DNA of 64,000 nt, from the NCBI GenBank assembly GCA_036785375.1, contig JAWMAR010000025.1:5146001-5210000 (forward strand). Reading direction: 5' to 3'. The DNA is from Leucoraja ocellata. Taxonomy: Eukaryota. The notes under the pieces are model-generated. The model did no database searches, was not told the DNA's origin, and worked only from the letters and a program-made list of their open reading frames with translations. Shown here piece after piece: positions 19,483 through 59,726 of the stretch (positions within the stretch are counted from its first letter, which is position 1; each line of letters begins with the position of its first letter). The translations under genes and the position numbers were made by a program.

Positions 19483-21883
19483 ATGCAGAAACACTTGGAC
19501 AGACATATAGATAGGAAATGTTTCATAGGGATATGGACCAAATGCAGACAAGTGAGACTAGTTTTGGATGATGTGGCATGGTTGGTATAGGCAAGTTGGG
19601 CCGAAGGGCCTGTTTCAATGCTGTATGGCTCTATGTCATAGATTCCACTTAAAGAATTTGTGCTGAATGACTCATGGCAGAAGGTAGTTTGTCTTTGGTT
19701 CCACCACCCACGAAGGTTTTGGAAGCAGTGAGTATATTCATGTCAGAGGTGGGTAGATTTTTCAGAGGGAATCAATGGGGTATTGTGTGTGTGCGGGGCA
19801 GAGATGCTAAAAGGATGATTTATGATCGCATTGAATGGCAGAGTAGGCTCAAGAGACAGAGTGACCTGCCTTTGATTCCCTTTCTTACATTATTATGCTC
19901 TTATAAAAGGTGACAGAAATTAGATGAAGCAATTCAGAAAGAGGAAAGAGAAAGAAAGAAGATAGTTAATATATATTTAGTTTTGTTTAGAAATACACCA
20001 TAGAAACTTTTGGCCCTTTGGTCCACCAAGTCCACTCCGCCCATCGATCACCCGTTCGCTATCGTTTTATGTTTTCCCACTTCCTCATCCACTCCCTGCA
20101 CACTTGGGGCAATTTTGAGAGGCTGATTAACTTAGAAACCAGCATGTGTTTGGGATGCGGGAGAAACCTGGAGCACCCGGAGGAAACCCACACCATCACA
20201 GGGAAAAGGTGCAAACTCTTCACAGAACAGCACCTGAGGTCAGGATCAAACCCTGCCCTCAGGCGCTGAGAAGCAGCGGCTCGACCAACTTAATGATTGA
20301 TCATTTCCATGGAAAAGCCTGAATCAAGTGTAGTTTGTGAATGTGTTCAAACATTTTTATGCTCGGTATACAGCTGTTGTTGCCCTGAGGGGAAGCTGGG
20401 TTTCCTGAACTATCACTCCTTGTGGTCATGCTAGTTACTACAATAAACACTCTGTTTGCCGGTCCTTATTATGCCCCATATCTGCTCCACTCCACCTACT
20501 GCTCAGGCCTAGTTTTTCTTTATATTTGACTAAACCTTGCATCTAAATGTACAAGAGACTTCCCTGCCAAATCAGTTTAAAACTCCCTGGTAGCACAAGC
20601 AAACTCCCCAGCAAAGTGTTCAAGAAGGAACTGCAGATGCTCGAAAATTGAAGGTAGACAAAAGTGCTGGAGAAACTCAGCGGGTGCAGCAGCATCTATG
20701 GAGCGAAGGAAATAGGCAACGTTTCGGACCGAAACTCTGCTGCACCCGCTGAGTTTCTCCAGCACATTTGTCTACCTTCAATTTTCCAGCATCTGCAGTT
20801 CCTTCTTAAACACTTTGTCTACTCCATTGCGAAATCTCCTCAAGGTATACCTACTTAGAAGAAACATAGAAACATAGAAATTAGGTGCAGGAATAGGCCA
20901 TTCGGCCCTTCAAGCCTGCACCGCCATTCAATATGATCATGGCTGATCATCCTACTCAGTATCCCGTACCTGCCTTCTCTCCATACCCTCTGATCCCCTT
21001 AGCCACAAGGGCCACATCTAACTCCCTCTTAAATATAGCCAATGAACTGGCCTCGACTACCCTCTGTGGCAGAGAGTTCCAGAGATTCACCACTCTCTGT
21101 GTGAAAAAAGTTCTTCTCATCTCGGTTTTAAAGGATTTCCCCCTTATCCTTAAGAAGTTCTCCTCTTCCCTCCGAAGACAGTTTTAGAGTCTGAAGAAGG
21201 GTTTCGGCCAGAAACGTTGCCTATTTCCTTCGCTCCATAGATGCTGCTGCACCCGCTGAGTTTCTCCAGCACTTTTGTCTACCTCCCCAGCAAGGTTACT
21301 GGAATAACACAACCTATCTGTATGTAAATTGGCTGCTGTGTTTTCTAACTTATACAACAACTTCAGTTTAAAAACTATTTTTTTGATGTTAATCGTTTTG
21401 GAATATCCTGAGGTCAAGAAAGGCATTGAATAATAAATGGAGATGTTTTCTTAATTTCTTCACTGATGCCGGAATACCATGTCTTTCCTTAAATCCTATG
21501 TGCTTACTGCCTGGAGACAGTAAATATTCTGGGATATTTGGCAAACAAGGATTCAGTTGGGTTAATCCACATTTGACAATACTTTGTGATGCCTTGTAAG
21601 ATTAGATAAAGTGCATTATAAATTGTTCAAGCGCTTTTGATTGCAACACGCGCCTTAATTTAGTTCAACAAAGAAACTGACAAGTTACTAAAAGAACCTC
21701 TTTATTTCCTTCCATTTTCCACATTGATGGATTTAATTGGCACTTTGACATCTGTGGTGCTACATTTCAGAAGCAGAGTACAAGGTGTATCCTCCAATGT
21801 GTAAGAAGGAACTGCAGATGCTGGTTTAAACCGAAGATAGACCAGGGACGATCTTCAGAGATCTGCACGCCCAGGAATTTGAA

Positions 21884-22570
21884 ATGGTCAAGAGCTTCAA
21901 ATTCCTGGGCGTGCACATCTCTGAAGATCTTTTCTGGTCCGAGAACACTGATGCAATTATTAAGAAAGCACATCAGCGCCTCTACTTCCTGAGAAGATTA
22001 CGGAGAGTCGGTTTATCAAGGAGAACTCTCTCTAACTTCTACAGGTGCACAGTAGAGAGCATGCTGACCGGTTGCATCGTGGTTTGGTTCGGCAATTTGA
22101 GCGCCCTGGAGAGGAAAAGACTACAAAAAGTAGTAAACACTGCCCACTCCATCATCGGCTCTGACCTCCCTTCCATCGAGGGGATTTATCGCAGTCGCTG
22201 CCTCAAAAAGGCTGGCAGCATCATCAAGGATCAACACCATCCTGGCCACACACTCATGTCCCCGCTACCTTCAGGTAAAAGGTACAGGAGCCTGAAGACT
22301 GCAACGACCAGGTTCAGGAATAGCTACATCCCCACAACCATCAGCTTGTTAAACTTGGCTCGGACAAAACTCTGAACATTAATAGCCCATTATCTGTTAT
22401 TTGCACTTTATCAGTTTATTTATTCATGTGTGTATATATTTATATAATGGTATATGGACACACTGATCTGTTCTGTAGTCATGCCTACTATGTTCTATTG
22501 TGCTGAAGCAAAGCAAGAATTTCATTGTCCTATCAGGGACACATGACAATAAACTCTCTTGAATCTTGAA
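21884..22570 (+). mobile_element. Rex1/Babar-clade LINE, 5'-truncated, ORF C-terminus still open (21884-22375)
   Basis: FKFLGVHISEDL.WS.NT..IIKKA.QRLYFLRRL..FYRCTVES.LT.CI..WFGN..HPGH..LPSGKRYRS: the post-RT domain typical of Rex1-type LINEs. Confidence 0.85.
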
Positions 22571-27200: not shown

Positions 27201-28889
27201 GAAAGGGCAGGAAATTGTTGTTTCGGACAGAAGATCAGCCATGATCTTGTTGAATGATGCGGCAAGCTTGGCAGGCTGATTAACTTACTCATGCTCCTAT
27301 TACATAAGGTATGTTAATTATCTATGATTTACTGTAAATATATCAGATGACTAAGCTTTCTTTTCTCTCTTGAGTAGGGATTGGTGCAGCTGGTGGAGCT
27401 GCAGTCTCACAGTGTCGGAGATCCGGGTTCAATCCTGACCTCGGCTGCTGTCTGTGGAGTTTGCACGTTCCCCTCTGTGACCGTGTGTGTTTCCTCTGGG
27501 TGCTCAGTTTTCCTCCCACATCCTAAAGACATGTTTAGGTTGGCTTAGTTTAGTTTATAGTCACGTGTGCCAAGGTACAGGAAAAGCTTTTTGTTGCATG
27601 CTATCCAGTCAGCGGAAAGACTATACATGATTATACATGTGGGTTTGTAGGTTAATTGGTCTCTATAAAATTGCTCTGGGTGTAGGGAGTGGATGCAAAA
27701 GTCAGATAACATAGAACTGGTGTGAATAGGTGACGTTTCAGATGGTTGGCATTGACTCAATGGGCCGAAGGGCCAGTTACCATGCTGTATCTTTCAAGTC
27801 CAAGTCATTTCCTCTGGGTGAAAAGGTTTTTGTTATTCTCTTAGATATTTGGGGACTACCTCCATCTACCTCCAAAAATCATTGCAAAAATGCAAAGCCA
27901 ATTTGTGCGCAGGAGTCTCTCATGAAAAGCGAAGTGGTAATGACCAGATAATTTAATCTATCTGAAGAGGCACAAAATGCTGAAAAGGAAAAAGAATAGG
28001 TGACGCTTCAGGTCGAGACCCTTCCTCAGCCTGATAAAGGGCCTCAATCCAAAACATCACTTATTCCTTTTCTCCAGAGGTGATGCATGACTGGCTGAGT
28101 TACTGCAGCATTTTGTGTCTCTCTTCGGTGTAAACCAGCATCTGCAGTTCCTTCTTACACATGTAATCTAGCTGAGCTGGTTCAAGGATGATTATTGGCC
28201 AGGTCAACCTAATTCCTGTTTATCCTTCAGTCGGAAGAAAGGTCTCAACCCAAAACGTCACCCATTCCTTCTCTCCAGAGACGATGCTTGTCCCGCTGAG
28301 TTACTCCAGCTTTTTGTGTCTATCCTGCTTCTCCTTCATTCGTCTTTGGATCTTTCTGCTTTCACATTTGCTGAAAGATCTCATCTCAACAACCCTGCTG
28401 TCTTAACATCTGCTGTTAAATGTGATCCTGCTCTCCAATATGATCCCATTTCCGGAGGCGCTGGCTCGAGCTGGGATGCCGTGTCTCTCTAACATTGTTT
28501 TTTTTTAATTTCAAAATAGACTTTATTCAATTGATAAATATATACAATTCATGAACCATTCGGACAAACAAAATGCATCCGACATTTTCGGAGACTATAC
28601 ACATTTTTTCAAGTACAATTTTTGTGTCTCTCCCACTACTGCCCTGTGACATGGAGAAAAACAACTGAGAGGAAACATTTGGCCCAAGAGGGGTTGTGGA
28701 CTGGCTTTATTACACAGCTGGGGCAGGCTGAACAAAGATGAGTCAAAAGTTAATTAAAAAAAAATAAAAGTTCTGCAATTTCCTGCCAGTGTAGACCTTC
28801 AATGTAAACAGAAAAGAAAACACATTTGTCTCCATGCCCCACCCCTGGCTCCCTCCACCATGGACTCTTCATTTCCTCGACTTGTTTTT

Positions 28890-29170
28890 GCAACAGGGCG
28901 GGACCACGTGGTGCGGGAAGAGGGGGGCGGGACCTCAGGCACCGCCCTGGGCGCTCTGATTGGCGAGGTGACGTAATCCCCAGGACTGTGATTGGCCGGG
29001 TCCGGTGCTTTGATGGGCGGGCTGACAGGTGAGGGGCGGGTGATTGACAGGCCGCGTCCGGGACTTGGCTAGGCGGCGCCAAGCGGAGAGTAGCAGTAGT
29101 AGCAGCGCCGTAGTACCGTGCCAGTCGCGCCCTGGCTGCTCCAAGCATCACACAGCTATTAAATGCAAGA
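28890..29170 (+). promoter_or_regulatory. CpG-island promoter, probably of paqr7
   Basis: Five GC boxes, CACGTG 28905, two ATTGG (28959, 28991), TGACGTAA 28969, TGATTGACAG 29041; non-repetitive and CpG-dense. Confidence 0.75.
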
Positions 29171-29569: not shown

Positions 29570-30957
29570 GTGAGTACTTGGGTGGATGGATCTCAGCGCC
29601 GGGCTGTCGCTCTCCTTGGATCCATCTCGATTCTCCAGAATAATTTACAGCTAAATGTCCAGCTCCTTCGCTGCGAAGAGTTTAAAGGGAATGAAAGTTT
29701 GTGTGTTTTGCTTTCTCGTTTATCTTGGAATAAGGATTGCATGGGGTTGGGCGCTGAATTAATCTGGTTAATTCAGAGGCCAGATTAACCGCTCAAGTTC
29801 CAACAGGGGCAGAATTAAAAGATGAGAGAAGATCTTGCGTTTTGGTTTCATGTGTTTCCCCACGGCTTTTTTTGCGGCTAAAGTTTGCCTTGTATGAAGG
29901 GTAGGTAGTCAGGAAGTGTGGCATCCGAGATGGAATTTTTTTGGTAGGAAACGTGAAAAACGTACTACTTTTTGGAAAGTGCCAGTCTACGCAAAGATCT
30001 TGGAGCTGGCAGACTCGTAGGTCAAGACCCCCCTGGTTTATTCCAGTCTGTCTGTGAGTGTTACTCCTGTTCTCACTGTGGTTATGTAGTTTCCTCCCAC
30101 AACCCAAAGACTTGTAAGTTGGTAGGTTAATTATCTAATGTATATTTTATCCCAGTGTGGCTAAGGGTCAAATCCAGTTTTTTTTTTTTTTTAATATATA
30201 TTTTATTCATTTGAATATATATTGTATCGTATTTTTTTCTGTATCTCTCTATATCACTGTCTATATCTCTCGTTTTCCTTTCCCCTGACTCTCAGTCTAA
30301 AGAAGGGTCTCGACCTGAAACGTTACATATTTTTCTCCAGAGACGCTGTCTGGCCTGCTGAGTTACTCCAGCTTTTTTTTGTGTCTATCCAGTTTCTTCT
30401 CATATACACATAAGATAGTGAGGCTCAGCTTGAAGAGTATGAGAGAAGGTCTCCCTCAAATTGAGTGGAGCAGGTTATTTGAGGGGGGAGGAACTTCGAC
30501 CAAGTCTGATGTTTTTAAATGTGTGCTGATGAAAGCCCAGGATATGTACGTCCCCGTTAGAGTGAAGGGCAAAGCAGGCAAACGCAAGGAAGCTTGGCTG
30601 ACGAGGGAAAATGAGGCGTTGGTCAAAAACCAGAAGGATGCATGGGACAGGTAGGTATAGGCAGCTGGGATCAAGTGCATCCCTGGAGTTTCAGGAATTA
30701 AGGAGTAAACTGAAAAAAAGAGATCAGACGGTCAAACAGGGGCCAGGGGATAGCTCTGGCGGGTAGCATTACGGACAATCACAAAATATTTTATAAATAC
30801 ATAAGGGGGGGAAAGGGTAACTAGAGAGAGAAAGTGGGACCTCTCAGGAATCAAAGAGGTTGCCTCTGTGTAGAGCCACAGGAGATGGGCAAAGTTCACT
30901 GTTACTATTTCTCCTCTGTATTTACCGAGAAGAAAGACAGTTCTAAGAGTGCTGGAC

Positions 30958-31698
30958 TTTCACCTCCGCAACATTGCCAAACTCAGACCCTCTCTCACAC
31001 CTCCCGCTGCTGAAAGACTCATCCATGCCTTCATTTCCTCCCGACTGGACTACTGCAACTCACTTCTCCTTGGCATCAGCTCCACCTACATCAACCGACT
31101 CCAACTGGTCCAGAACGCAGCCGCCCGACTCATCACCCACACCAAATCCTGGCATCACATCACTCCAGTCCTCAAACAACTTCACTGGCTTCCCATCTCC
31201 CACCGGATCACCTACAAAATCCTGATCCTCGCCTACAAAGCCCTCCACCATTTGCCCCCCCCATATCTCACTGACCTCTCCCCCTACCAACCCTCACGGT
31301 CCCTCAGATCCACATCAGCCGGTCTCCTCTCCATCCACAAGTTCAACCTCCGCAGTTTTGGGGACAGAGCCTTCTCCAGGGCAGCTCTCAGGCTCTGGAA
31401 CTCCCTCCCCCAACTGATCCGCAATTCCGTGTCCCTCACCATCTTCCAGTCCCGCCTCAAGACCCATCTCTTCACCTCTGCCTATCCTTAGCCCCACGTC
31501 CCCCTCCCTTTTCATCTGTGCTTGAATTGCCTCATATTGTGTTTTGAATTGAATTCTGTCTTTAATTTGTGTACTAGTCATGTCTCTACTATTTATTTCA
31601 TTCCCCTTACATGTTTTTCCTCTACTTGCTAAATTTTTGTAAGGTGTCCTTGAGACTCTTGAAAGGCGCCCATAAATAAAATGTATTATTATTATTAT
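30958..31698 (+). mobile_element. L2 LINE 3' fragment with open ORF2 C-terminus (adjoins older CR1 at ~30420-30945)
   Basis: FHLRNIAKLRP.L...AE.LIHAFISSRLDYCNSLL.G..LQLVQNAAARL..HITPVL.QLHWLP; tail GAAAGGCGCCCATAAATAAAATG(TAT)n. Confidence 0.92.
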
Positions 31699-34122
31699 TG
31701 GAATGTTATAGTGGTCACTAAAAGGTGTAGTGGGGAATTAAAAAAACAAACTTATTTGTTAACAAAGTGATGAAAATATGGAACTGATGACCACATGGGA
31801 ATGATTGAAGCAACAAGTATACATGTACTTAAAAGGAGGGGAAAAAAAACAAATAAAGGGTTGCACTGAAAGTTTTAGATGAGGACTGATGACAGGAGAC
31901 TTGACCGAAAAGTAATGTAAAAACAAGGAACTGCTGATGCTGGTTTACACCAAAGGACAAAGTGTCAGAGTAACTCAGGGGGTCAGGCAGCATCTCTGAA
32001 GGACATGGCTACATGACGTTTTTGGGTCGGGACCTTTCTTCAGACTGATTGTGGGGGGAAGGGTGAGGACCACAATCAGTTTGAAGATGGGTCCCAATCC
32101 AAAACGTCACCTATCCACGTTCACCAGGGATGCTGCAAACTAAACGGGGCTCCAATGAGTTTAATAGGAGCATGGGAAATGTGGCATCACGGGGCTAGAA
32201 GGAGCTCTGGAATGGGGACCCATGTGGTTAGAGGGAGTGTGAGCAAGCTACATGCAACTCGGGAAATGGGGTGTTGATGAGGTTAAAGGGAAACAGATCT
32301 GGGTGCACAGATGCCATAACGATTGGGATTTCCAAACAATAGGCTAGCAGATTATCGACGTTGCTGTGCCTCGTGTTGATGGATTTTCATTATGATCTTT
32401 TCTCGAAGTGGAAATAATTTCCCTGACTCCATTCCTTCAAAACCCGCTTCATCATTTTAAACGTGCTTTGCGTGGCTTCACAACCCTCTTTTATCATGTG
32501 AAGAAGAGAGACAGTCTGTGTATTTCACGTTACGTCCATGTAAATCATCTCTGGATCCTTTCTGTTGTTTCCATATTCTTTCTCCAGGGTGGTGATTAGA
32601 ACAATACGCAGAACTGTTCGGTGTGGCCTAGTCATGGTTCGAAACATGTTTAGCACGCTCAATCTTCTTTCAAATTCAATCCCTTTGGAAATAAACTGCA
32701 GTGCATGCTGTGGTTCCATCCACCTTGGCTAAACTGCCGGGTGTAACCCTCATTGAATGGTTATGAGTACTCCAAGATCCCATTTGTCACACCCCACTCT
32801 CCCACCCTTGGGCAATTGAACCATCCTACCACAATGATAGAGCAGTCCTGAACTACTGTGCAAGAAGGAACTGCAGATGCTGGTTTAAACCAAAGATAGA
32901 CACAAAAAGCTGGAGTAACTCAGCGGGACAGGCAGCATCTCTGGAGTGACGGAATGGGTGACGTTTCGGGTCGAGACCCTTCTTCACTAGAACCTACTAT
33001 CTACCTCATTGATGACCCTCAGACTATCTTTGATTGGACTTTACAGGCTTTACCTTTCACTAAACGTTAATCCTTTATGTACCTGTACACTGTAAATGGT
33101 TTGATTGTAATCATGTATTGTCTTTCCACTGATTGGTTAGCACGCAACCAAAGCTTTTCACTGCACCTCGGTACCTGTGACAATAAACTAACCTGAACTG
33201 AAACTAAACACCACCCTATCTCCACTGCAGGTTTAAAGTTCTTAATAACCTCTCAGTTCTTCCATTCAAAATATATTCCCTTGCATTGGTCTGTGTTGAA
33301 CTTTACAGGGCTCTCACTTAACTATTTTTCCCTGTTGCCAGCCAGGCAACCTTGACAGCATTTTAGGTTGCCAAATGGCAGTTTAGGTTGTCATTTAAGA
33401 CGGTTTGCATGACGCATGCGATAATGTGCTCGGACGAAGTGCGTGGTTACCATTCGGAATTGTGCTCAATGAAGCATTTGCATATTATGTTCAAGAAGGA
33501 ACTGCAGATGCTGGAAAATCGAAGGTAGACAAAAGTCCTGGAGAAACTCAGCGGGTGCGGCAGCATCTATGGAGCAAAGGAAATAGGCAACGTTTCAGGC
33601 CGAAACCCATCAGTCTGAAGAAGGGGTTCTCCAGCACTTTTGTCTACATTCACATATTATTTCTGCTTCAAATATTGAATTGAATTGCATTGAATTGAAT
33701 TCCTTTATTGTCATTCAGACCTTACGGTCTGAACGAAATTTCGTGCCTGCAGTCATACATACAATAATACAATAATAAACAACAATAAACACAAATTAAC
33801 ATCCACCACAGTGAGTCCTCCAACCACCTCCTCACTGTGGTGGAGGCAAAAATCTTAGGGCTGCAGTCTCTTCCCTCCTCTTCTCCCTCTGCGCTGAGGC
33901 GATTCCCCACCGGGCGATGGTACAAACAGTCCCGCAGCTCACCGAACCCCGCGAACGGGCCGGTTCAAACACTGCGGCCCGGGGTGGTCGAAGCCGCCAC
34001 ACCTCCAGTCCAGCACACGCAGCCGCCGGCCCGCGCCTGAACCCAGGACTCTGGACACCGCTGCCAGAACGTCGTCCCAGCCACCCGAGCACCGTCCCAA
34101 CCCCCGGACCGGATCGCCCTCA

Positions 34123-34350
34123 CGTGAGTACCGTTCCACCCTCGGTCTGGGCCACTCCAGCGGGAGTGCCGTTCCTCCCTCGGGCTGGGCCACTCCGACG
34201 GGAGTGCCGTTCCTCCCTCGGGCTGGGCCACTCCAGCGGGAGTGCCGTTCCTCCCTCGGGCTGGGCCACTCCCACGGGAGTGCCGTTCCTCCCTCGGGCT
34301 GGGCCACTCCAGCGGGAGTGCCGTTCCTCCCTCGGGCTGGGCCACTCCAG
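34123..34350. repeat. 38-bp GC-rich minisatellite, 6 copies
   Basis: Unit CGGGAGTGCCGTTCCTCCCTCGGGCTGGGCCACTCCAG at 34123 (diverged), 34161, 34199, 34237, 34275, 34313; degenerate partial copy at ~34372. Confidence 0.95.
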
Positions 34351-34596
34351 CCCCTCACCAGGCCGCTCTCACGGGAGCACCGTTCCATCCCGGGCTGGGC
34401 CGGGAGCGAGCCCAGGACGAGTCCTGTCGGCTGCCTCCTGAGTCCCGAGGTCGCCGGCTCCGCTAGGCCTCAGCGTAGACGGAGGCAGAGAAGGGGGATA
34501 CGACAAAAAGGTCGTATTCCCCCGAAGGGAGTGACAGCAGCCCCCGTTTCACCCCCCACCCCCCTCCCCACATAAACACAGCCTAAAAACCAAAAA

Positions 34597-35137
34597 CATA
34601 GACATAGAAACATAGAAATTAGGTGCAGGAGTAGGCCATTCGGCCCTTCGAGCCTGCACCACCATTCAATATGATCATGGCTGATCATCCAACTCAGTAT
34701 CCCGTACCTGCCTTCTCTCCATACCCCCTGATCCCCTTAGCCACAAGGGCCACATCTAACTCCCTCTTAAATATAGCCAATGAACTGGCCTCAACTACCC
34801 TCTGTGGCAGAGAGTTCCAGAGATTCACCACTCTCTGCGTGAAAAAAGTTCTTCTCATCTCGGTTTTAAAGGATTTCCCCTTTATCCTTAAGCTGTGACC
34901 CCTTGTCCTGGACTTCCCTAACATCGGGAACAATCTTCCTGCATCTAGCCTGTCCAACCCCTTAAGAATTTTGTAAGTTTCTATAAGATCCCCTCTCAAT
35001 CTTCTAAATTCTAGAGAGTATAAACCAAGTCTATCCAGTCTTTCTTCATAAGACAGTCCTGACATCCCAGGAATCAGTCTGGTGAACCGTCTCTGCACTC
35101 CCTCTATGGCAATAATGTCCTTCCTCAGATTTGGATA
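34597..35137 (-). mobile_element. Young CR1 LINE 3' fragment
   Basis: Open frame PNLRKDIIAIEGVQRRFTRLIPGM..LWNSLP..GEKAGTGY and (CATAGAAA)n tail. Confidence 0.93.
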
Positions 35138-36104
35138 ACTAGACAAAACGAAAAAAAACAACACAAAAAAGTAAAAGACAAACGGACTGCAGGCGAGCCG
35201 CAGCCGTTCCCAACGCCGCCACTTCCGGTTATGTGGGAAATAACTCACAAACTAACCATATTCACCAATCAAGACATGATATATACCACAATGACACGCA
35301 GCAAAATTATAATGCAATATCTCAACTCTTTTTACACAATGCAATTAATGCAAATTCTATTAGTTCTTTCCACTTCCAAACAAAAATGTGGTTGGATTGT
35401 TCAGCATATGATCAACCTGTGTCAATAAATCCTGGACCATGGTAACATATATACTTAACCATGCACACTACAGATTGATGCAAGCATGTTTTTTGTGGGA
35501 TCGAAAATTATCATGAAATGGCCATAGCATGGGGTCGTTATTGCTATTGGCACAGAAACACTCTCGCTTCCAACATAATTTATCCATAACAAAATATACA
35601 GGTTGCAAGGAAATTTCTACAGGCATTTTATGATGAAAGCTGTTCAAACCGATTATACCCATCTGACATTACACTGACTGACAAGAGATGGCCAAAGGAC
35701 ATAACTGCAGCAAATGTTCTTTTGGTAATATGTTTAAAGGAGGAGTCGGTGGAGCCGCTGTTCAGGGCCCGTCATTCACTCCGGCCCTTCGTCACCATGC
35801 ACCTAGTACCTTTGCCCCAGCTGCAGCCGCCACAAAACGTCACGTTCCTATTCTCCAGAGATGCTGCCTGACCTGCTGAGTTACTCCAGTTGTTTGTGCC
35901 TATCGGTATAAACCAGTATCTATAGTGCCATGCTGGGCAAAATGACTCGGCGTTTAGGTTGCCCGGCGACACTTTGGGTGGTCAATGGCACCCGGGCAAC
36001 CGCTAATTTCGAGTCCTGCTTTATCTGCCAGTTATTTGTCCATTGTCCAAGCTTAGCCATGTCCTATACTTCATTGCAGTGATCCTCAGTGTTGACTGTT
36101 TCCT

Positions 36105-36142
<38 letters not shown>

Positions 36143-38247
36143 GCACACACACACTCGCACATATTCTCACTCATCCACAACTTTAGAAATTGTGTTCTTG
36201 GCTCCAGAGTTTAAACCATCAGTGTAGATTGTGAATAGCACTGATCACAGTGGCATTCTCTGCTTTCTGTCTTAAAACAGCCAGTACAGCAATCCGGTTT
36301 GCTCTTTTATTTTCCCTTGAATTGTCTGGTGTTCAGCAATCCATTTTGTGGGTCCTTTCTAGAGGACTTCCAAGGTCTAGTATTAAATCATCAATGTCAG
36401 TACGCTCTCCCTGTTATCTATTCGATAATTAACAAAGATTAGTCAAGCAAGATATTTCCCTTTAATGTCCCTGCTGACTTCATTACAATTCTTTTGTTTC
36501 TTGATATTCATCTCTCTTTAGTGGGGAATCTATTATTTTTCCAAACACTGGCTCTGTAATGTCCTGGGCCTGTTCCAACTGTCTTCTTCTGCCAATGGTT
36601 CAATGGTGCTTTATTGTCACTTGTTTCTCGAGTCCAACACACGCGCTAAGCCTCGGGCTTCTGCAGGGCCTTTGTCTGGATTGTTCAATGAACTGACCGT
36701 CCTCTCCTCGATCGGGCACCTTTGTGCCCCGGCGGTGCCTACCACAGTTAACCTTGAGGGCGGGTCACTTCTCACTGACCGACCTTGTTCCTCGTGGCCG
36801 TTTTCGCCGGCTCCCCTCTCTTTGGTTCTCCGGCCTTCATGGGACGAGCAGGGGCCGGGCTCCCCACCCCCCCCCCCCCCCTTACAGGCCACAGCCCACC
36901 CAGCCTCTCTGCGTCTGGCCTCTCTGCGTCTGGGTTCCCGGTTCCATGGTGGACGAGCCTGACTGCTGCCTGGTATGGCAGCGGTTCACCGGGATCCTTC
37001 TCGTCCAGATTTACCGAAGCTGTCTACATTCTGTGGCACGCGCTTTTTCCTGGTGATTTATTATTATATTTATATTTGGAAAGACAGCAAGAGGAAGGTC
37101 GCGTACAAGATGAGTAGGCGGAATGCGCAGGAAGGAACTGCAGATGCCGGTTTACACCGAAGATAGACACAAAATGCTGGAGTGCTGCCTGTCCTGCTGA
37201 GTTACTCTAGCATTTTGTGTCTATCTTCGGATAAGTAGGCGGATTGATTTGGTTGTATATAGTGACATTTTATTTGTTGTGCATCCTATGCAATATATGT
37301 GCACAGTGGGCTCAACAACAGAAGGTAGAATGAATACAACATAACTCTTTAGTGATGTTGTTGAGGGCTAAATATTGACTGCGGACCACTGAGGAAAACT
37401 TCCTTTCTCGTCTTAAATAGTGGCATTGAATCCTGACGCCCTGCAGGGGGGGATGAATGTGAGGATGAGAATTTTCAAACGGAGGCATTGATCGATTTTG
37501 CAGGCTTGAACACTTGTGGTAGAACAGTTGGTTTCTGCAGTAGGGCAGTGTTCTTCCAGAAAGCTGAGTTCTTCTGGATTGAATTCCCTTGATTACCTAG
37601 ACTTCATGAAAGTAGTTTCCCTTTTAAGAAGTGGGAGGGTGACTAAAGGAGTTTGGAGTTGTCTCTATTCCTGCTGATTCTAGTGGAATTTAGTGACATT
37701 ACTTCTAAGATACTTAAATTTAATCCCAAAGAGTTGAAGCGCCTGCTCTTTGAGTCTGGAAAAGTTGAGGAATAGTAATTTTCCACTCATTTGCATGTGA
37801 CTCTTTGAAGAAACTACCCATGTCAGACACTTTCCTGAGATTTCTATTTCAATTTTAAAACTGTTTCTGTTTGAACAGTTATTTTAAATTTCCTTTTAAA
37901 TCTGTTGTCATCAGATTTTCAGGCTATATCATTGCATCTCGTTGCTTTTTCTTAAATCAAACGAAATGTCTCCATTTTTTTAGCCAAAAAACTGATTGCG
38001 ATTTGATGCTGTTTCTCCTTCTTTCCTCGCAAATCTTCAACATCTCCAACAAATGTCCCGTCAGCATTTTCAATTCCCAAGATAACTGTTCCACTTCTCC
38101 ATTTCTTCACATTATTGCAGTCGTCTAAAACGTTGGTACGGTCACATTTGTGGTATTGTGTGCCAGTTCTCGTTGCTTCATTACAGCAGGAAGACTGTGG
38201 AGGCTTTGGAGAGGGTGATGAGGTTTACCAGAATGCTGCCGAGATTA

Positions 38248-38810
38248 GTCAAGTCAAGAGTGTTTTATTGTCATATGTCCCAGACGGGACAATGAAATTC
38301 TTACTTGCTGCAGCACAACAGAATATGTGAATATGTACACATTGTGTATAAAGGGAGTTCAATAAATAAATAACAAATATAGTGCAAATGACATATAATA
38401 ATATAGTCTTTTGCAGTTCAGAGCTCATAAGCTTATTCGTTGTGTTTAATAGCCTGATGGCTGTGGGGAAGAAGCTGTTCCTGAATCTGGATGTTACCGT
38501 TTTCAGGCTCCTGCACCTTCTTCCTGATGGCAGTGGTGAGATACATGTGTGGCCAGGATGGTGTGGGTCCTTGATGATGTTGGCTGCCTTTTTGAGGCAG
38601 CGACTACGATAGATCCCTTCGGCGGTGGGGAGGTCAAAGCCGGTGATGGACTGGGCAGTGGTCACAACTTTTTGTAATCTTTTTTCGCTCCTGGACGTTC
38701 AAGTTGCCGAACCAGGCCACGATGCAACCAGTCAGAATGCTCTCTACCGTGCACCTGTAGAAGTTTAGGAGAATCCTCTTCAATATGCCGAGTCGCTGTA
38801 ATCTTAGCTA
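38248..38810 (-). mobile_element. Rex1/Babar-clade LINE 3' fragment
   Basis: TAQSITG.DLPT.EGIYRSRCLKKAANIIKDPHHPGH..LPSGRR; (CTTGA)n tail. Confidence 0.85.
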
Positions 38811-39716
38811 GAAGGTATTAGCTATAAAAATACGTTGGACAAACTTGGATTGTTTTGTCTGGAGCGTTGGAGTTTGAGTCGAGTCCTGATAGAAGTTGAT
38901 AAAATTATCAGAAACTTAGATAATGGTCATATAACAGAGAGAGTCATTGTCTTTTTCCCAGGATGGAGATTTCAAATACTACACCACAAAACTATAAGAT
39001 GAGACGGAGAAAGTTTAAAGAAAAGAGAAGTTCCTTGCAAAGTGCTTGGGACACATTGCTGGGGGGGGGGGGGGGGGGCAGTTATAATCAATGCATTTAA
39101 GAGGAATTTGGGCATATAAACATGTTGGGAGTGGAAGATAGACACAAAATGCTGGAGTAACTCAGCGGGACAGGCAGTAATGGAAGATATGGATCACGAG
39201 CAGGCAGAAAGGATTAGTTTAATTTAGCATTATTTTCAGCAGACATTGTCGACCGTAAGGGCTTGTTCCTGTGTTCTGCTGCTCTATATTCGAAGTGAAG
39301 TCGTTCATCCCTGCTTTGATGCATCAGTCATATTAGACATTTAGTGGCGAGTTGATTGAATATGTGGTGGTGGTTTATGAACATGGCAACTGGTGACTTT
39401 GCATCTGCTGACCATGCAGTGATAAGGAATTGATTAGGATTGTTATCTTTTGTTGCAAGGGGAACTGAAGGCAAAAGTAGTGCTGTTTATTAGTGAAACC
39501 ACGTCTGGTGTGCTGTGTTAAGTGTAATGCTCCGTTATGGAGAGAAGGCAGGTACAGGATACTGAGTTGGATGATCAGCCATGATCATATTGAATGGCGG
39601 TACAGGCTCGAAGGGCCGAATGGCCTCCTCCTGCACCTATTTTCTATGTTTATTTATGCTAAGGATATTAACAGTTTGGAAACGGTATAAAGATGTTTTA
39701 CAAGGTTTGATGCTGC

Positions 39717-40398
39717 CTTCTTCTTCTTGCGTATGTCATGCACAGCCGAAAGTTGGAGATCAAGGGCAGACATCCAGGCCAGGACAGAATCAGTTACTGG
39801 GCTTAGATGCCCCTAGGGAAAAGCCTCAGTGAGCAGTCATTCACGATGTGTGGGATGGCCTGGTCTGGATGTCCGCAGTCATAAGCAGGGCTTTCTGTCA
39901 TCCCCCACTTATGCAGGTGATGGGCTGTTCTTGCATGGAGGGTGCGGATTCTGTTCGGCGTCAGCCATTGCTTGCGATGGAGGTCAAAGCCCAGTGGTTT
40001 CACAGTGGGATCTGTGATGCCCTCTCCGTTGTTGGTGTTGGCATCTTTCCAGGCTCTGCGCCACTCAGTCTTGGAGTCAAAGTCTTCCAGGGATTTAACG
40101 GAAGACCACAAGGGTTTGCGGGACTTCAGGCGCACGTTGGGCAGATTGTTCAAGTCAGCGTGGATGAGAAGGCCAGGGTTATTCTCGATGATGCACCAAC
40201 CTTTCAACATCCTCTCCCTTCTGCGTATGCTGGGAGGGGCGATATGAGAGAGGACAGGGAGCCACTGCAAAGGTGTTGACTTTAGCGTCCCTGTGATGAC
40301 CCACTTGCAGAGTCAAGGACAGTGTCAACTCGGTTGGTGTGGCAGCTATTAGCCCGGCTGTTGAGTAGACTAGGGCTAAGCTTGCCTTACCGAGGGTA
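39717..40398 (-). mobile_element. Vingi/Ingi-like non-LTR retrotransposon 3' fragment
   Basis: LALVYSTA..WLPVLSHIAPP.IRR..RLKSRKP..GFDL.R..W...NRIRT..KWG..SP..DCG..Q...HIV.DC (degenerate CCHC finger) and CATACGC(AAG)n tail. Confidence 0.65.
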
Positions 40399-41008
40399 AG
40401 AAACATAGAAAATAGGTGCAGGAGTAGGCCATTTGGCCCCTCGAGCCTGCACCGCCATTCAATATGATCATGGCTGATCATCCAACTCAGTATCCTGTAC
40501 GTGTCTTCTCTCCATATCCCCTGATCCCTTTAGGCACAAGGGCCACACCTAACTCCCTCTTAAATAAAGCCAATGAACTGGCCTCAACTAGCTTCTGTGG
40601 CAGAGAATTCCACAAATTCACCACTCTCTGTGTGAAAAATGTTTTTCTCATCTCGGTCCTAAAAGACTTCCCCTTTATCCTTAAACTGTGACCCCTAGTT
40701 CTGGACTTCCCCAACATCGGGAACAATCTTCCTGCATCTAGCCTGTCCAACCCCTTAAGAATTTTGTAAGTTTCTATAAGATCCTCCTCAATCTTCTAAA
40801 TTCTAGTGAGCATAAGCTGACTCTATCCAGTCTTTCTTCATATGAAAGTCCTGCCATCCCAGGAATCAGTCTGGTGAACCTTCTCTGTACTCCCTCTATG
40901 GCAAGAATGTATTTCCTCAGATTAGGAGACCAAAACGGTACACAATACTCCAGTTGTGGTCTCACCAAGGCCGTGTACAACTGCAGTAGAACCTCCCTGC
41001 TCCTATAC
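40399..41008 (-). mobile_element. Young CR1 LINE 3' fragment
   Basis: YTALVRPQLEYCVPFWSPNLRK..; frameshifted. Confidence 0.92.
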
Positions 41009-41838
41009 TATAAGTGCATTGAATCCCCAGCTGTTGCCTGGAATGGCTGGATGTCTTGTGTAAAAGTTGGCACATGCTAGGTTTTATTTCGGGACCCTTC
41101 TTCAGACTGGTCCCTTTCCCCTGACTCTCAGTCTGAAGGTGGGTCTCGACCCTAAACGTCCCCTATTCTTCTTCCCCAGAGCTGCTGTCTGACCCGCTGA
41201 GTTACTCCAGCTTTTTGTGGCTATCTTCAGTTTAAACCAGCATCTGCACCTGCAGTACACTATGCTTTTATTTGTTGTTTAGGAATGAACCATATAAGAC
41301 ATCTGGGTCTTAACAGGATGGATGCAGAAAGGATGTATCACCTGGGACAATGTAGAATTGGGGTCAATTAACATGCATATAAAACAGAAGCGAGCATTTT
41401 TCTCTGGGGGTCTTGATTCTTAGCAACTTTTCCTCAAAGGGTGATGGTAGCAGAGTTTTTTTAATCTTTTTAGGTCAGAATTACATGGTTGCTTGATTAA
41501 TAATGGAATCAATAGTTATTGGGGATTGACAGATGTGTAGGGACTGATAATCTATCAACGATGACGTTAGCATCATTGGGTGGTGTAGCACAGAAATGGA
41601 TACTTTGGCACAATGCCTCCATGCCAAGCAAGATCTTTTGTTGTGTGGTAACTAGTCAGCTGAAAGACAATACATGATTACAATCACATCATCCACAGTG
41701 TATGGATACATGATAAAGGGAATAATGTTTAGTACGATATAAAGTTGAGTAGAGTCTTCTATTAATGCATTTGTCCAAAATGTCTTGTAAATGTTGTAAT
41801 TGTAATCTTTCAAACACTCTCTGGCTACTTATTCCATA

Positions 41839-42798
41839 GTGTGGGCGCCATCTTGGGGCTGTCCGTCTTTTTCACTCTTTTCCTTAATTTTTAGTGAGTT
41901 TTGTGTTTTGTTTTTAGGCGGTCTAGACTTTTTTATGTGGGGGGAGGGGGGAACTATTTTCTAGGTCCCTACCTGGTCGGAGAGGCAGCTTTTCTCCGGG
42001 CTGCACCGTTGACCCGTCCTCGCGGCCTACCAGCGGGTTTGGAGCGGCGTTTTCCTGTGGGACCGCCCAGCACCTTCGGCTTCGGTGGCGGCACAGCGCT
42101 GGAACGCTACCGCGGAGCGGGCGATGTCTTGCCTAGGTCGCCGCGCTGGAGCTCCAGTGAGCTGAGACCGCCGAGAATAACATCGCGGAGCTGCGGGTCT
42201 GTGGAGCGGGCAGCTGCGGGTGGCGGCTCTGTCTTTAACATCTGGAGCCTGGGATCTCTCGATGAGATCGCCAGTGGTGGAGCTCCAACCCGTCGCGGCC
42301 TTGTCGGCTTCAGAAGCTGCGGTCTCCGGTAAGGAAGCGGCCGTTCCAGGTGTCCCAAGCCGCTGTGAGGACTCTCCCGACGCCGGAGCAACATCACACG
42401 GCGAGAACGGCCTGGAACATCAGGTCTCCGTAGTGGCAACTGTGGAGGCCTCAATAGGCCCGACTATAGGTGAACTGGGGATGGGGACTGGACATTGTGC
42501 CTTCCCTCATAATGGAAACCATTGTGGGGGGATGTTTCTTATGTTAAAGATTCTTATTGTTCCATTTCCAAGATGGCTGCCGGAAGGGAGAGTGAACGCT
42601 GGCGTGATTAGCTGCCGCTGCTCTCTCTTTGAATTGTGTATTGTTGATGTCTTTACTATTTATTTTTTATTTTTTGTTGTTGTTATTTTTTTGTTTTGTT
42701 TCATTCCGCTTACATGTTTTGTAATCTGTTTACTAAATTTTGTAAGGTGTCCTTGAGAGTCCTTGAAAGGCGCCCATAAGTATAATGTAGTATTATTA
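41839..42798 (+). mobile_element. Complete 960-bp GC-rich non-coding retroelement with L2 tail and 10-bp TSD
   Basis: TSD TTATTCCATA at 41829-41838 and 42799-42808; 3' end TTGTAAGGTGTCCTTGAG..GAAAGGCGCCCATAA..(TAT)n matches the L2 tail at 31.6-31.7 kb. Confidence 0.75.
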
Positions 42799-43070
42799 TT
42801 ATTCCATACAGCCTCCACCCGCTCTGTGGAAAAAGTTGATCCTCTGGTTCCCTTTTAAATCTTTCCCTTCTCACCATAAATATATGCCCCCTAGTTCTTG
42901 ATTCCCAACCTTTGGAAACAAACTGTGTACAATCACCTTATCTATGCCTGGTATAATTTTAGACATATCTGTGAGATCACCCACTGAGTTTCCTAGGCTC
43001 CAAGTAATAAAGTCCCAACCTGCACAATCTATCTCTGCAACTCAATCCCTTGAGTCCTGGCAACATCCTC

Positions 43071-43198
43071 AGTCTGAAGAAGGGTTTCGGCCCGAAACGT
43101 TGCCTATTTCCTTCGCTCCATAGATGTTGCTGCATCCGCTGAGTTTCCCCAGCACTTTTGTCTACCTTCGATTTTCCAGCATCTGCAGTTCCTTCTTG
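43071..43198 (+). ncRNA. Minimal type I hammerhead-like motif at the start of a Penelope-derived repeat
   Basis: CTGAAGA(43074)-A-GGGT-TTCG-GCCC-GAAAC-GTT; has the CUGANGA and GAAA boxes, stem II and the palindromic ACGT. Confidence 0.55.
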
Positions 43199-44981
43199 AG
43201 CAACATCTCATAAATCTTTTCTGCACTCTTTCCAGCTTAATGGCGTCTCTCCTAAAGCATGGTGATCAAAACTGAACGCACAACTCCCAAGTGTGCCCTC
43301 ACCAATGCCTTGTACTGCTGCGACATACAACATCTTTTCAAATGGTAGAGCAGACCTGAGGGTGTGAATGATCTACTCCTCATTTGTGTGTGTGTGTGTG
43401 TGTGTGTAAATATTTTCATAAAATAATACAGAACCTAATCCAATAAAACAAACAATTCCAGCGTGTTCATACTCTGCATAATTTGCTGACATCATCAATG
43501 TGACCTTTCCTGTTCTTATCTAACTTTTCCTTAAATGCATACAATATAAATGTTGCTGTGATACGTATCAGTGCTGAAGCATTGGTTGGGAGGAGGCACG
43601 AGGAACTCAGCGGGTCAGGTAGCATCTCTGGAGAACATGGTTAGGTAACGTTTTGTGTCGGGGACCCTGCTTCAGACAGGCATTGTGATCAGATCAACCA
43701 TATCCTGAGATTTGGAGGGGTAAGTGACGGGTTGGAAGTGGTTCAGTCTTGTATTTTCTTGGAGTGCTCCATGATGATAATTTCCTGGTTGTTTGATGTT
43801 ACTCTTGAAGTCCAGCCTGACATTTTCAGGAGTAACATGTGTGTGGATTGCAATTCATCAAACAGTACTGGCTTTGGGCATTGCTGGACAACATTTATTT
43901 GTAGAGGGTTCATAACTGGGAACAACTGAGCACAACCTGACCTTCCTGGGGAAGGTAGACACAGAATGCTGGAGTAACTCAGCGGGACAGGCAGCACCTC
44001 CAAAGAGAAGGAATGGGTGATGTTTTGGATTGAGACCCTTCTTCAAGACTGAAGGTCCCAATCCTTAATGTTCAGACCTTCAGACTGAAGAAGGGTCTCG
44101 ACCCGAAACATCACCCATTCCTTCTCTCCAGAGATGCTGCCTGCCCCGTTGAGTTACTCTGGCATTATGTGTCTTATCTTCGGTTTAAACCAGCATTTGC
44201 AGTTCCTTCCTGGTGCAGGGCTGGACTTGACCCTTGTAGGGTGAGTCCTTCCTCCCCTGAAATCTGATTGAAGCAGCAAGGTACTGGCTCTTTCCCCGAG
44301 CAACAAGGTTCCAATGCCTTCCTTACCCCCGCTCTTCCCCTCCCCCCCCCCCCCCCCAAACCCACAGCACAGACACAGCTGGCTGCTGGCCAGCATAGAC
44401 AGACCATTCACCCTCCCCAACATGTGCAACACCTATTCATCCACTTCTAAGACCTCTGATATTTACAGTGGGAGCCCAGCGACCAGAATAACTGTTGGAT
44501 GTCCACTGCAGATCTTTTTATCTGTACTGAAAGCACTGGGTCAGGAAGTAATAAACAGTACAGATTGGATAAACCCAGTCAGCAACTTGGTGATGAAAAC
44601 ACAGCTAATCTCAAAACAACGACACATTCACTCAAAGCTGGGATAGATTTCAAAAGCAAAGTCAGCTGTGCAGGAGAATTCGGCATACGGTTTCAAGAGC
44701 CATACAAGGAGGCAGGGCATGTTTGAGAAGGATCGTTTCATTTATTAGGGACCCAGGTTAAAGACACTGACGCCAAAGGGCAAATGAACGGCAACTCTTT
44801 TTAGTGGTGATAGGGTTAGTAACAAGAGGACAAAGAATTAAGGCGACTGGCAAAAGAACAAGAGGCAAAATTTAACATGGACAGTGATTTTGATTTTGAC
44901 TGCAGCACCAAGCAAGGTTGTGGCTGACAATTGGGTGCTGGGTGAACACGTAGTAAAAATTGTCAAGTAAGGAGACTTTAT

Positions 44982-45650
44982 TGTCATGTGTCCCAGATAG
45001 GACAATGAAATTCTTGCTTGCTGCAGCACAACAGAATATTGTAGGCATAAATACAGAACAGATCCGTGTGNNNNNNNNNNNNNNNNNNNNNNNNNNNNNN
45101 NNNNNNNNNNNNNNNNNNNNNNNNNNNNNNNNNNNNNNNNNNNNNNNNNNNNNNNNNNNNNNNNNNNNNNNNNNNNNNNNNNNNNNNNNNNNNNNNNNNN
45201 NNNTTTGTTTGAAGTTGTCTTTAATAGTCTTATGACTGTGCGGAAGCAGCTGTTCCTGAACTTGGATGTTGCAGATTTCAGGCTCCTGTACCTTCTACCT
45301 GATGGCAGCGGAGAGATGAGTGTGTGGAAAGGATGGTGTGGGTCCTTGATAATGCTGGCAGCCTTTTTGAGGCAGCGACTGCGATAGATCCCCTTCGATG
45401 GTAGGGAGGTCAGAGCCAATGATGGACTGGGCAGTGTTTACTACTTTTTGTAGTCTTTTCCGCTCCTGGCCGCTCAAGTTGCCGAACCAAGCCACGATGC
45501 AATCGGCCAGCATGCTCTCTACTGTGCACCTGTAAAAGTTAGAGAGAGTCCTCCTTGACATACCGACTCTCCGTAACCTTCTCAGGAAATAGAGGCGCTG
45601 ATGTGCTTTCTTTATAATTGCATCGGTGTTCTGTTACCAGGAGAGATCTT
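44982..45650 (-). mobile_element. Rex1/Babar-clade LINE 3' fragment spanning the assembly gap
   Basis: SRRTLSNFYRCTVESML..; tail at 44982-45070. Confidence 0.85.
45071..45203. other. Assembly gap (133 N)
   Basis: Run of n. Confidence 1.
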
Positions 45651-51321: not shown

Positions 51322-51358
51322 AAACCAGTATTTGTGAGATCTCCAGCATTACGTTGAG

Positions 51359-52417
51359 ATGGCAACGGTTGTGATGGAGCAGATTGGCAGACTCTTCATC
51401 AACATCCAGCAGATCCGTCAGATCCCCAGCCTGGTGGAGCAGTCCATTCCCAGCCTGCCGTGCACGGTGAAGGACTGCGAGGTGCCGCAGATATTCCGGG
51501 AGCCCTACATCCACTCTGGCTACCGGCCCGTTAAGCAGAGCTGGCGCTACTACTTCTTCACCCTGTTCCTGCGGCACAACGAGTCCGTCAACGTCTGGTC
51601 CCACCTCTTCGCCGCGCTGATCGTCCTCCTCAAGCTGCAGGAGTTCTCCCAGACGGTGGACTTCTGGTCAGATCGGCACGCGCTGCCGCTGCTGATCCTC
51701 CTCCTGACCGCCTTCACCTACCTGGCCTGTAGCTCTCTGGCCCACCTTTTGCACGCTCGCTCCGAGCTTGCCCATTACTCCTTTTTCTTCGTGGACTATG
51801 TCGGCGTGGCTATCTATCAGTATGGCAGTGCGTTGGTCCACTACTACTATTCTGCCGAAGAGGAATGGTACCACTTCATCAAGACCTTCTACCTCCCCGC
51901 AGCCACCCTGCTGGCTTGGTTGTCATGTGTCGGATGCTGCTATGCAAAATCCAACGCTAAGCAGCTTCGCCCCATGTCTCGCAAACTCTACCAGGTAGTC
52001 CCGGCAGCACTGGCCTACATGCTGGACATTAGTCCCGTGCTGCACCGGATATACAGCTGCTATTCCTCCAGTTGCACTGACTCTTCCATTTGGTACCATG
52101 AATGCCAGGTCATCTTCTTCCTCATAAGTGCCCACTTCTTCTCTTGTCCCCACCCGGAGAAGTGGCTCCCTGGAAAGTGCGACATTTTCCTGCAGGGGCA
52201 TCAGATTTTCCACGCCTTCATGGTCCTCTGTACCCTGGCCCAGCTGGAAGCCATTCATTTGGACTTTAAGCACAGGCAGCATTTCTATCAGACTTGGCAC
52301 AGCAACTCCACCTGGACTGTGTTGGGCTGTTTTGCCGTGGTCATCTCCTCCAGTGTTATTACGGTGGCTTACATGAGGCACCTCGTCAGAGTCAAACTTG
52401 GCCTCAAGGAGAAATGA
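51359..52417 (+). CDS. paqr7: Membrane progestin receptor alpha (PAQR family member 7), 352 aa, single coding exon
   Basis: N-terminus MATVVMEQIGRLFIN as in fish mPRalpha; PAQR motifs PYIHSGYR, HNESVNVWSH, SSLAH, DYVG, PEKW.PG.CD, HQIFH; multiple TM segments; strong Kozak GAGATGG. Confidence 0.95.
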   Translation: MATVVMEQIGRLFINIQQIRQIPSLVEQSIPSLPCTVKDCEVPQIFREPYIHSGYRPVKQSWRYYFFTLFLRHNESVNVWSHLFAALIVLLKLQEFSQTVDFWSDRHALPLLILLLTAFTYLACSSLAHLLHARSELAHYSFFFVDYVGVAIYQYGSALVHYYYSAEEEWYHFIKTFYLPAATLLAWLSCVGCCYAKSNAKQLRPMSRKLYQVVPAALAYMLDISPVLHRIYSCYSSSCTDSSIWYHECQVIFFLISAHFFSCPHPEKWLPGKCDIFLQGHQIFHAFMVLCTLAQLEAIHLDFKHRQHFYQTWHSNSTWTVLGCFAVVISSSVITVAYMRHLVRVKLGLKEK

Positions 52418-59567: not shown

Positions 59568-59726
59568 ACAAAATGCTGGAGGAACTCAGCGGGTGAGGCA
59601 GCATCTCTGGAGAAAAGAAATGGGTGACGTTTCGGGTCGAGACCCGAAGGGTCTCGACCCGAAACGTCACCCATTCCTTTTCTCCAGAGATGCTGCTTCA
59701 CTCGCTGAGTTACTCCAGCATTTTGT
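59568..59726. repeat. Near-perfect Penelope-derived hairpin, 78-bp arms, GAA loop
   Basis: Ungapped inverted arms 59568-59645 and 59649-59726. Confidence 0.85.

Follow-up and report, generated by a model that had tools for sequence, protein, structure and literature searches.

An abundant, transcribed 1-kb skate retroelement family with an L2-derived tail and, likely, a Rex1-type tail on the same body

Short interspersed elements (SINEs) are defined, in the available portion of the SINEBase description (PMC3531059), by at least 60% identity to tRNA, 5S rRNA, or 7SL over 60 nt and by a Pol III internal promoter; they are also interspersed, shorter than 1 kb (the other limit given is 700), and present in at least 100 copies. 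Exchange of the 3' tail is known for SINEs with tRNA or 5S heads, both in cartilaginous fish including chimaera (HE1-HER1, SacSINE1, and CmiSINE-L2-2_CM) and in salmonids (SmaI/FokI-SalL2 and SlmI/HpaI-RSg-1), according to the accessible text of PMC5499810 and PMC3747384. That Pol III SINEs borrow and swap the tails of LINEs is well established, and by 2018 no more than four LINE clades had been reported to yield ORF-less derivatives transcribed by Pol II. Both rules would be broadened by an abundant, transcribed ~1-kb element that lacks a small-RNA head and carries L2 and likely Rex1 tails. A structured tail held in common is how stringent LINEs, eel L2 among them, select their passengers (Kajikawa and Okada 2002, as cited in PMC5786205).

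The window analyzed here is a 64,000-nucleotide stretch of vertebrate DNA crowded with LINE ends of CR1, L2, and Rex1 type and with SINE-like repeats; these clade names, which we take to hold for the LINE fragments of the window, come from protein motifs. An earlier note had proposed that two elements of the window, here called E1 and E2, form one family of non-coding retroelements with swappable LINE tails (Table 1). In the accessible part of PMC13343379, elasmobranchs have a CR1-group content of 22-34%, and rays are among those with the highest Rex1 coverage. On this ground, and from the types of repeat present, we take the window to come from a ray or skate. The Rex1-type frame listed in Table 1 is the only one among the LINE fragments with a Pfam match; other Rex1-type copies lie near 7, 24, 45, and 49.5 kb, and a 133-base run of N (45071-45203) falls within a Rex1-type fragment. 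The window also holds an intact single-exon frame of 359 codons (51338-52417, PF03006), likely a membrane progestin receptor gene of the PAQR7/8 type; a CpG island (28880-29140) that contains several ATTGG and GC boxes and is likely a host promoter; and a Harbinger-type transposase fragment (62989-63669; DDE_Tnp_4, E 1e-19). Long near-perfect inverted repeats at 309-398, 12235-12338, 59598-59696, and 60322-60539 comprise stems of 37-50 bp and a 220-bp palindromic region, most of them being abundant short repeats placed head-to-head. A GC-rich, CpG-rich, strand-skewed segment with a G-tract (36520-37000) matches neither E1 nor E2 and has no second copy in the window.

Table 1. Features of E1, E2, and the LINE copies compared with them (window coordinates)
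Feature	Position	Strand
5' target-site duplication of E1, TTATTCCATA	41829..41838	+
E1 5' tip: YY1-like motif (41847), GTCCGT; low family depth	41839..41866	+
E1 T-rich tract, GTTTTTAGGC, TTATGT, G-tract; length and sequence differ between copies	41867..41951	+
E1 GC-rich, CpG-island-like body with four AACATC motifs	41952..42500	+
Second stem, 13-bp, 5' of the main E1 hairpin	42422..42451	+
E1 14-bp hairpin flanked by GCC / TGTT; retained in P0001, echoed in E2	42502..42532	+
E1 U-rich spacer; a different spacer precedes 42567 in other copies	42533..42566	+
55-nt cassette opening with YY1-like AAGATGGC and CCGGAAG	42567..42621	+
Distal L2 3' UTR: stem-loop, (TAT)n end, 36-nt T-rich insertion	42622..42798	+
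3' target-site duplication of E1, TTATTCCATA	42799..42808	+
Old CR1 ORF2 remnant, split by antisense E1	41755..42956 (41755-41838 + 42809-42956)	-
E2 head: ETS-like CCGGAAGTG, GTCCGT, T-rich tract	35136..35230	-
Nested CR1 3' fragment within the E2 T-rich tract	34597..35135	-
E2 5' hairpin after G-tract, z -5.5	34493..34523	-
GC-rich 38-bp tandem array, 5.9 copies, 94% matches	34126..34351	-
E2 14-bp hairpin, 15-nt loop, GCC / TGTT flanks	33802..33844	-
E2 Rex1-type tail: stem-loop, ATGACAATAAA, (ATTCA)n	33675..33770	-
5'-truncated L2 LINE with 3' UTR matching E1	30952..31699	+
Second L2 copy	9260-8816	-
Rex1-type LINE 3' end, tail reference; PF09004 frame	21830..22570	+

E1 (41839-42798, 960 bases) is bounded by the 10-bp target-site duplication that the earlier note had described, and both copies of TTATTCCATA are present. 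A direct repeat of at least 10 bases at this spacing was found in 40 of 5000 random window pairs. When E1 and one repeat were removed, the modeled empty site aligned without a gap across the junction to all four CR1 remnants tried. Moreover, paralogous copies of the old CR1 repeat in public-run contigs join 41804 directly to 42815-42851. Thus, head, body, hairpin, cassette, and tail of E1 were inserted together. CpG decay accounts for 8 of the 28 listed differences between E1 and its family within the element, which marks E1 as an aged copy. Self-comparison of the window gave no third copy of the E1 or E2 body.

The last 177 bases of E1 derive from an L2 3' UTR. They are 86.7% identical over 105 columns to 31592-31694 and to 8923-8821, and the match reaches back to 42622 around a 36-base T-rich insertion; the L2 tail claimed for E1 was thereby matched to both L2 copies of the window. 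The cassette upstream might have been a duplicated E2-like head, an idea that was dropped as not significant (143/2000 shuffles). The hairpins of E1 and E2 lie where the earlier note had placed them, each with GCC on the 5' and TGTT on the 3' side. Uninterrupted stems of at least 13 bp occur at 15 places in the window, and only these two hairpins have both flanks. Among the 40 of 337 variants that were listed, one falls in the E1 hairpin, in its loop (42516). It is also correct that the E1 stem has three G-U pairs and folds in the sense but not in the antisense orientation (z -2.9 vs -0.3), but the argument drawn from these pairs is weak: G-U pairing confined to the sense strand is expected by chance in one of eight cases of three transitions, two of the three positions are C-G in E2, and a G-U pair of the neighboring stem (42425) is C-G in 99% of the family depth.

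Public sequencing runs revealed how common the element is. The stretch or part of it was contained in 20 of the 24 runs listed (9 studies), and four runs were aligned to 41541-43040 at 80% likeness, three of DNA (X1, X3, and X8) and one of polyA RNA from organism C (X22). Across the DNA runs, individual bins of the E1 body had summed depths between 61,000 and 2.1 million; in X1, the body bins reached 84,000-986,000 compared with ~36-40 in the unique flank, and X3 and X8 gave the same profile. Summed depth is no copy number and was used for its order of magnitude only, by which the E1 family is abundant and many-copy, roughly thousands-fold over unique flank; depth ratios along E1 also vary with the drift of this copy from its family. 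X1 may be the source of the window itself, and the flanks of X3 and X8 are near-identical, so the runs come from the same or a close species and are not independent evidence of range. In X22, RNA coverage was continuous over 41891-42790 with a ratio of 10.9:1 for one orientation, which is the element sense in most stranded libraries, as compared to 0.99 in the flanking repeat. The E1 family is transcribed in sense. Several indels segregate in its RNA, which implies many source loci, and the run alignments displayed no transcription start site. A very high-depth repeat in the left flank of E1 (41635-41750, minus strand) is transcribed equally on both strands, and its loose ends read as another Rex1-type tail. 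A pattern written for the hairpin matched no viral locus and nine metagenome loci without similarity to the window; three prokaryote-genome loci were taken as chance, going by their titles. Scans of viral contigs with the L2-tail pattern and three protein-guided scans returned nothing.

The earlier note had stated that both elements lack tRNA A/B boxes; ARAGORN reported 0 genes, and neither a small-RNA family of Rfam nor a simple B-box pattern gave a match. Over 31000-43300, Rfam had no tRNA, 5S, or 7SL match up to E 5, with five chance matches only. A Pol III head was rejected, given the missing small-RNA head and B box and eight runs of at least four T in the first 150 bases of E1 that would stop Pol III. 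So was a ribozyme head, as Rfam had no HDV-like or hammerhead match and our own descriptors found none in E1; one loose hammerhead-core pattern lies inside the nested CR1 only. The E1 body has a GC content of 0.63 and a CpG o/e of 0.89 (0.45 and 0.45 in the window) and is likely an internal Pol II promoter region. The motifs near both 5' ends, which we presume to be YY1-like and ETS-like, are present as reported, that of E2 near 35228. The one at 41847 is present in E1 and may not be common to its family, since the tip has ~29x the flank depth as compared to ~10,000x for the body; either the tip is not shared, or the T-rich tract blocks alignment. Loose read ends occur in the E1 head at 41929, 41957, and 41964. 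The CpG-rich body, the YY1/ETS-like motifs, the T runs, the lack of a small-RNA head, and the polyA RNA together point to Pol II, and we infer that this polymerase transcribes the family.

Several further observations concern the E1 head and body. The tip (41840-41857) is complementary to the cassette start (42568-42581; 13/14, reached in 2/2000 shuffles) and to the L2 tail stem (42769-42778; 32/2000 shuffles), which could reflect either a long-range closure of the RNA or simply two oppositely oriented YY1-like sites. The AACATC motifs of the body (42179, 42237, 42390, and 42416) are the complement of GATGTT downstream of the hairpin. Joints in public contigs that skip 69-76 bases of the body hint at a degenerate internal repeat. 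The T-rich tract followed by TTTTAG-GC resembles a 3' splice acceptor in E1 (41910-41919) and E2 (34590-34581), through which the body might be joined to host exons. None of the 15 of 84 joints listed corresponds to a mini-intron running from GTCCGT to TTTTAG in E1, and this reading is disfavored because an efficiently spliced intron would vanish on copying.

E2 spans 35230-33675 and comes to ~1,017 bases once a nested CR1 piece is removed. This piece (35135-34602) is 91.5% identical to 40927-40399 and lies within a 185-codon open frame; it and the 38-bp array had been overlooked when E2 was first delimited. The claim that neither element has a credible ORF therefore needs qualification: E2 as delimited contains the frame of the nested CR1, and E1 has two long stop-free sense frames. 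We found no target-site duplication of at least 6 bases around E2. The E1 counterpart of the E2 5' hairpin is weaker (z -2.3 alone and -0.5 in context). The GC-rich VNTR of E2 is absent from E1 by TRF, with only weak internal periodicity there. The tail of E2 aligns by motif, as judged by eye, to five of the seven putative Rex1-type ends tried, among which the 38-kb and 56-kb stretches do not contain the tail. In a window-wide scan with the E2 tail, Rex1-type tails ranked 2 and 3, after a (TAT)n repeat. The Rex1-type tail claimed for E2 is thus borne out by motif alignment to Rex1-type 3' ends of the window.

Evidence that the E1 body also occurs with another 3' end came from a protein search with the 191-codon frame of E1, which gave one match among 243 candidates (P0001, E 8e-16). 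P0001 is encoded by a single 235-codon frame of a 3.1-kb contig and is likely a chance translation of another E1-family copy. A wider search added a second head (P0002), and P0003, an unrelated repeat protein, was dropped. P0001 matches E1 along the stretch between G-tract and hairpin, both included, and the single amino-acid change in the hairpin stem is compatible with pairing; it then diverges and has neither the cassette, which is absent from the L2 3' UTR of the window as well, nor the L2 tail. Read back into nucleotides, its end scored z 2.6 against the E2 tail and 3.5 and 5.0 against two Rex1-type tails; three further Rex1-type tails, three of six, gave 0.4-1.6, within noise, and the E1 3' part, both L2 tails, and a CR1 tail gave -0.5 to -1.0. 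The last eight residues allow a stem-loop of -11.7 kcal, which 0/100 residue shuffles matched and which has the shape of a Rex1-type tail found as a loose end in the run alignments. The P0001 tail is thus likely of Rex1 type, judging from one contig at the protein level. Protein searches with the P0001 end (shorter proteins) and with an E2 frame returned nothing.

The read depths bear on the same point. In the DNA runs, the depth of the hairpin exceeded that of the cassette by factors of 5.0, 5.9, and 5.9, which suggests that most hairpin-bearing copies likely end otherwise. In X22 RNA, this ratio was 0.95, which may reflect 3' bias, and cassette depth was near that of the L2 tail. The cassette is entered at 42567 by 558 RNA reads coming from a different U-rich spacer, indicating a likely break point there. 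Thus, Rex1 and L2 tails have likely been swapped within the E1 family, with the swap point at the 3' end of the U-rich spacer, near 42567. The modular family with exchangeable LINE tails of the earlier note survives in that E1 is multi-copy, its hairpin is kept, and P0001 is an other-tailed copy; it does not survive for the pair of E1 and E2, which by sequence are not one family.

Other readings of these data have to be weighed. In X1, the spacer has a depth of ~2,900-3,800 compared with 92,000-145,000 for the cassette, so the E1 junction is minor there, as it would be if E1 were a one-off chimera from a single insertion. We give this almost no credence, since the spacer is still ~80-100x deeper than the flank and ~1,240-1,300 sense RNA reads of organism C cover it (42538-42564). 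It is also very improbable, to our judgment, that the family encodes a protein of ~235-285 residues in the manner of ORF1-only non-autonomous LINEs (HAL1, HeT-A, and Ag-Sponge). The two overlapping sense frames of E1 (144 and 191 codons) are of a length rare in local shuffles (P 0.002-0.005) and share the register of the P0001 frame, and 11 of 24 listed variants are synonymous; however, this share has p 0.14, the frames were chosen post hoc, and the 24 belong to the 40 of 337 variants listed. Three copies differ in frame locally, P0002 ends at 92 residues, and one-base indels are common in the RNA (973/1901 reads at 41956 and 283/740 at 42289). Neither six E1/E2 frames nor P0001 or P0002 had a Pfam match, a search of the Atlas produced nothing usable for P0001 and, for the L2 frame, eukaryote clusters only, and P0001 was found owing to its long frame in the first place. 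E1 is likely non-coding.

A further question is whether E1 and E2 are related at all. The ordered head motifs described earlier are all present in both, and the head alignment has z 7.0 against full shuffles; against shuffles that keep local composition, it drops to 1.6-1.7 (reached by 30 and 35 of 500), so the similarity is borderline, and the GC bodies show no alignable similarity (z 0.2-0.5). With E-values of 0.06-0.08, this is what convergent or low-complexity look-alikes would give, and the pattern that fits both hairpins had been derived from these very sequences, which makes its zero chance count circular. Yet, among ~2,500 windows, the 5' domain of each element has its best match in that of the other (nhmmer E 0.063), by the thin margins of 46 vs 40 and 42 vs 39, and a covariance model built from the E1 hairpin alone placed that of E2, in sense orientation, at the top of 27 non-self matches (E 0.081). 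Eight pairs are unchanged, three changed on both sides, two on one side, none broken, and one gapped, with the caveat that any two stems fitted to one model appear compensatory; by sequence alone, neither hairpin retrieves the other, and the alignment is misplaced. Across the 64 kb, head and hairpin each have their best match in the other element, with order and strand preserved, the whole alignment (z 3.4, 0/100 shuffles; z 2.4, 3/100) exceeds 100/100 20-base shuffles, and P0001 shares the E2 layout of hairpin, spacer, and Rex1-type tail. We therefore consider unrelated elements unlikely and distant sister families the likely relation, at most, as sequence does not support one family; were they unrelated, the tail swap within the E1 family could still stand. 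Head and body might instead be the 5' UTR of an autonomous Rex1 (or L2) LINE, the elements being bipartite internal-deletion derivatives and E1 the product of a later tail exchange, an origin that we find possible and yet doubtful and that would leave the copying mechanism unchanged. A CpG-rich leader with YY1/ETS sites is what a LINE promoter typically looks like. ORF1 is missing from Rex1 and from chondrichthyan L2, and repeating subunits occur near the 5' UTR of some elements without ORF1 (accessible part of PMC13343379); bipartite LINEs are, moreover, expected to be Pol II transcripts (PMC5786205). Nevertheless, a body that occurs with two 3' ends cannot have arisen by simple deletion from both LINEs, read depth along the body is flat and above that of the L2 tail, unlike in 5'-truncated LINE copies, and ORF-less bipartite forms were known as of 2018 from RTE, Ingi, Vingi, and R2 only (PMC5786205).

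The scheme that we favor, a family of tail-swapping retroposons, would run as follows. The ancestral form likely consisted of head, GC body, hairpin, U-rich spacer, and Rex1-type tail, the arrangement of P0001 and E2; because both have such a tail after hairpin and spacer, Rex1 was likely the ancestral partner and the L2 cassette a later graft. In a minority branch that includes E1, the tail near 42567 would have been replaced, probably by template switching or recombination, with the 55-nt cassette and the distal L2 3' UTR, and this branch would then have spread with the L2 enzyme. The hairpin lies 35-60 bases 5' of the tail module whichever tail follows; such a constant position suggests a role independent of the tail, e.g., in RNA stability or delivery to LINE proteins. 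As a whole, with ancestral Rex1 tail, L2 graft, hairpin role, and E2 as a sister, we hold this model to be fairly probable. The unit insertion, the L2 tail, the abundance, the sense transcription, and the presence of the same body with another 3' end are observed; the Rex1 identity of the P0001 tail, the polymerase, the direction of the swap, the role of the hairpin, and the kinship of E1 and E2 are its conjectural parts. A bolder version is tentative and, in our estimate, rather improbable: rays and skates would have a superfamily of long, Pol II-driven non-coding retroposons originating neither from a small-RNA head nor from a LINE 5' UTR, in which the hairpin is the tail-independent module that allowed one body to be refitted from Rex1 to L2, and the L2-tailed RNA would make up most L2-tail transcripts, out-competing the LINE that it parasitizes.

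Compared with described systems, E1 and E2 resemble SINEs in having a 3' end in common with a partner LINE (86.7% for L2; the Rex1-type motif in E2). By the SINEBase definition as far as available (PMC3531059), E1 lacks the required head and promoter; at 960 bases, it is below 1 kb and above 700, with many copies by the depth proxy. Like tRNA/5S SINEs, the E1 family is non-autonomous and modular, borrows a LINE 3' end, and changes partner by tail swap; unlike them, it is ~1 kb long, has no tRNA/5S/7SL head, no B box, and many T runs, and gives polyA RNA. No such element is described in the accessible portions of PMC6274825, 10.1101/788562, 10.64898/2026.10.27.761883, and PMC3287187, and the limited literature searched contained no description of the family or of tail switching without a small-RNA head. 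So abundant a repeat is probably in automated repeat libraries under some label. In large numbers, the family spreads CpG-island-like sequence through the genome.

The GC-rich head on a LINE-derived tail recalls the bird elements BuceSINE and ManaSINE2, whose tail is of the bipartite AviRTE type and which carry a GGCCCCGG motif; the available text describes no exchange of tails across LINE clades for them (PMC4844689). In contrast, the tails of E1 and E2 match L2 and Rex1-type ends, and GGCCCCGG has 0 matches in the window. SVA ends in a poly(A) tail. Like SVA/LAVA, E1 and E2 are composite and non-autonomous with a GC-rich body, and E2 has a VNTR; unlike these L1-using elements, as described in the accessible part of PMC3287187, they carry structured tails of the CR1 group, and no shared sequence is implied. 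With bipartite ORF-less LINEs (RIME, NARTc, RTESINE, Bov-A, and R2 derivatives; PMC5786205), the family shares a likely Pol II origin of its transcripts, a likely non-coding character, and a LINE 3' UTR end. If the head proved to be a Rex1 5' UTR, this would still be the first bipartite case for Rex1 in the literature searched, and a less surprising one. The same body with two tails is a natural swap experiment, in which recognition by the LINE enzyme can be separated from the other needs of a passenger RNA. Unlike in the bipartite LINEs, the tails of the E1 family, L2 and likely Rex1, sit on one body, so at least one of the two forms is not a simple deletion product.
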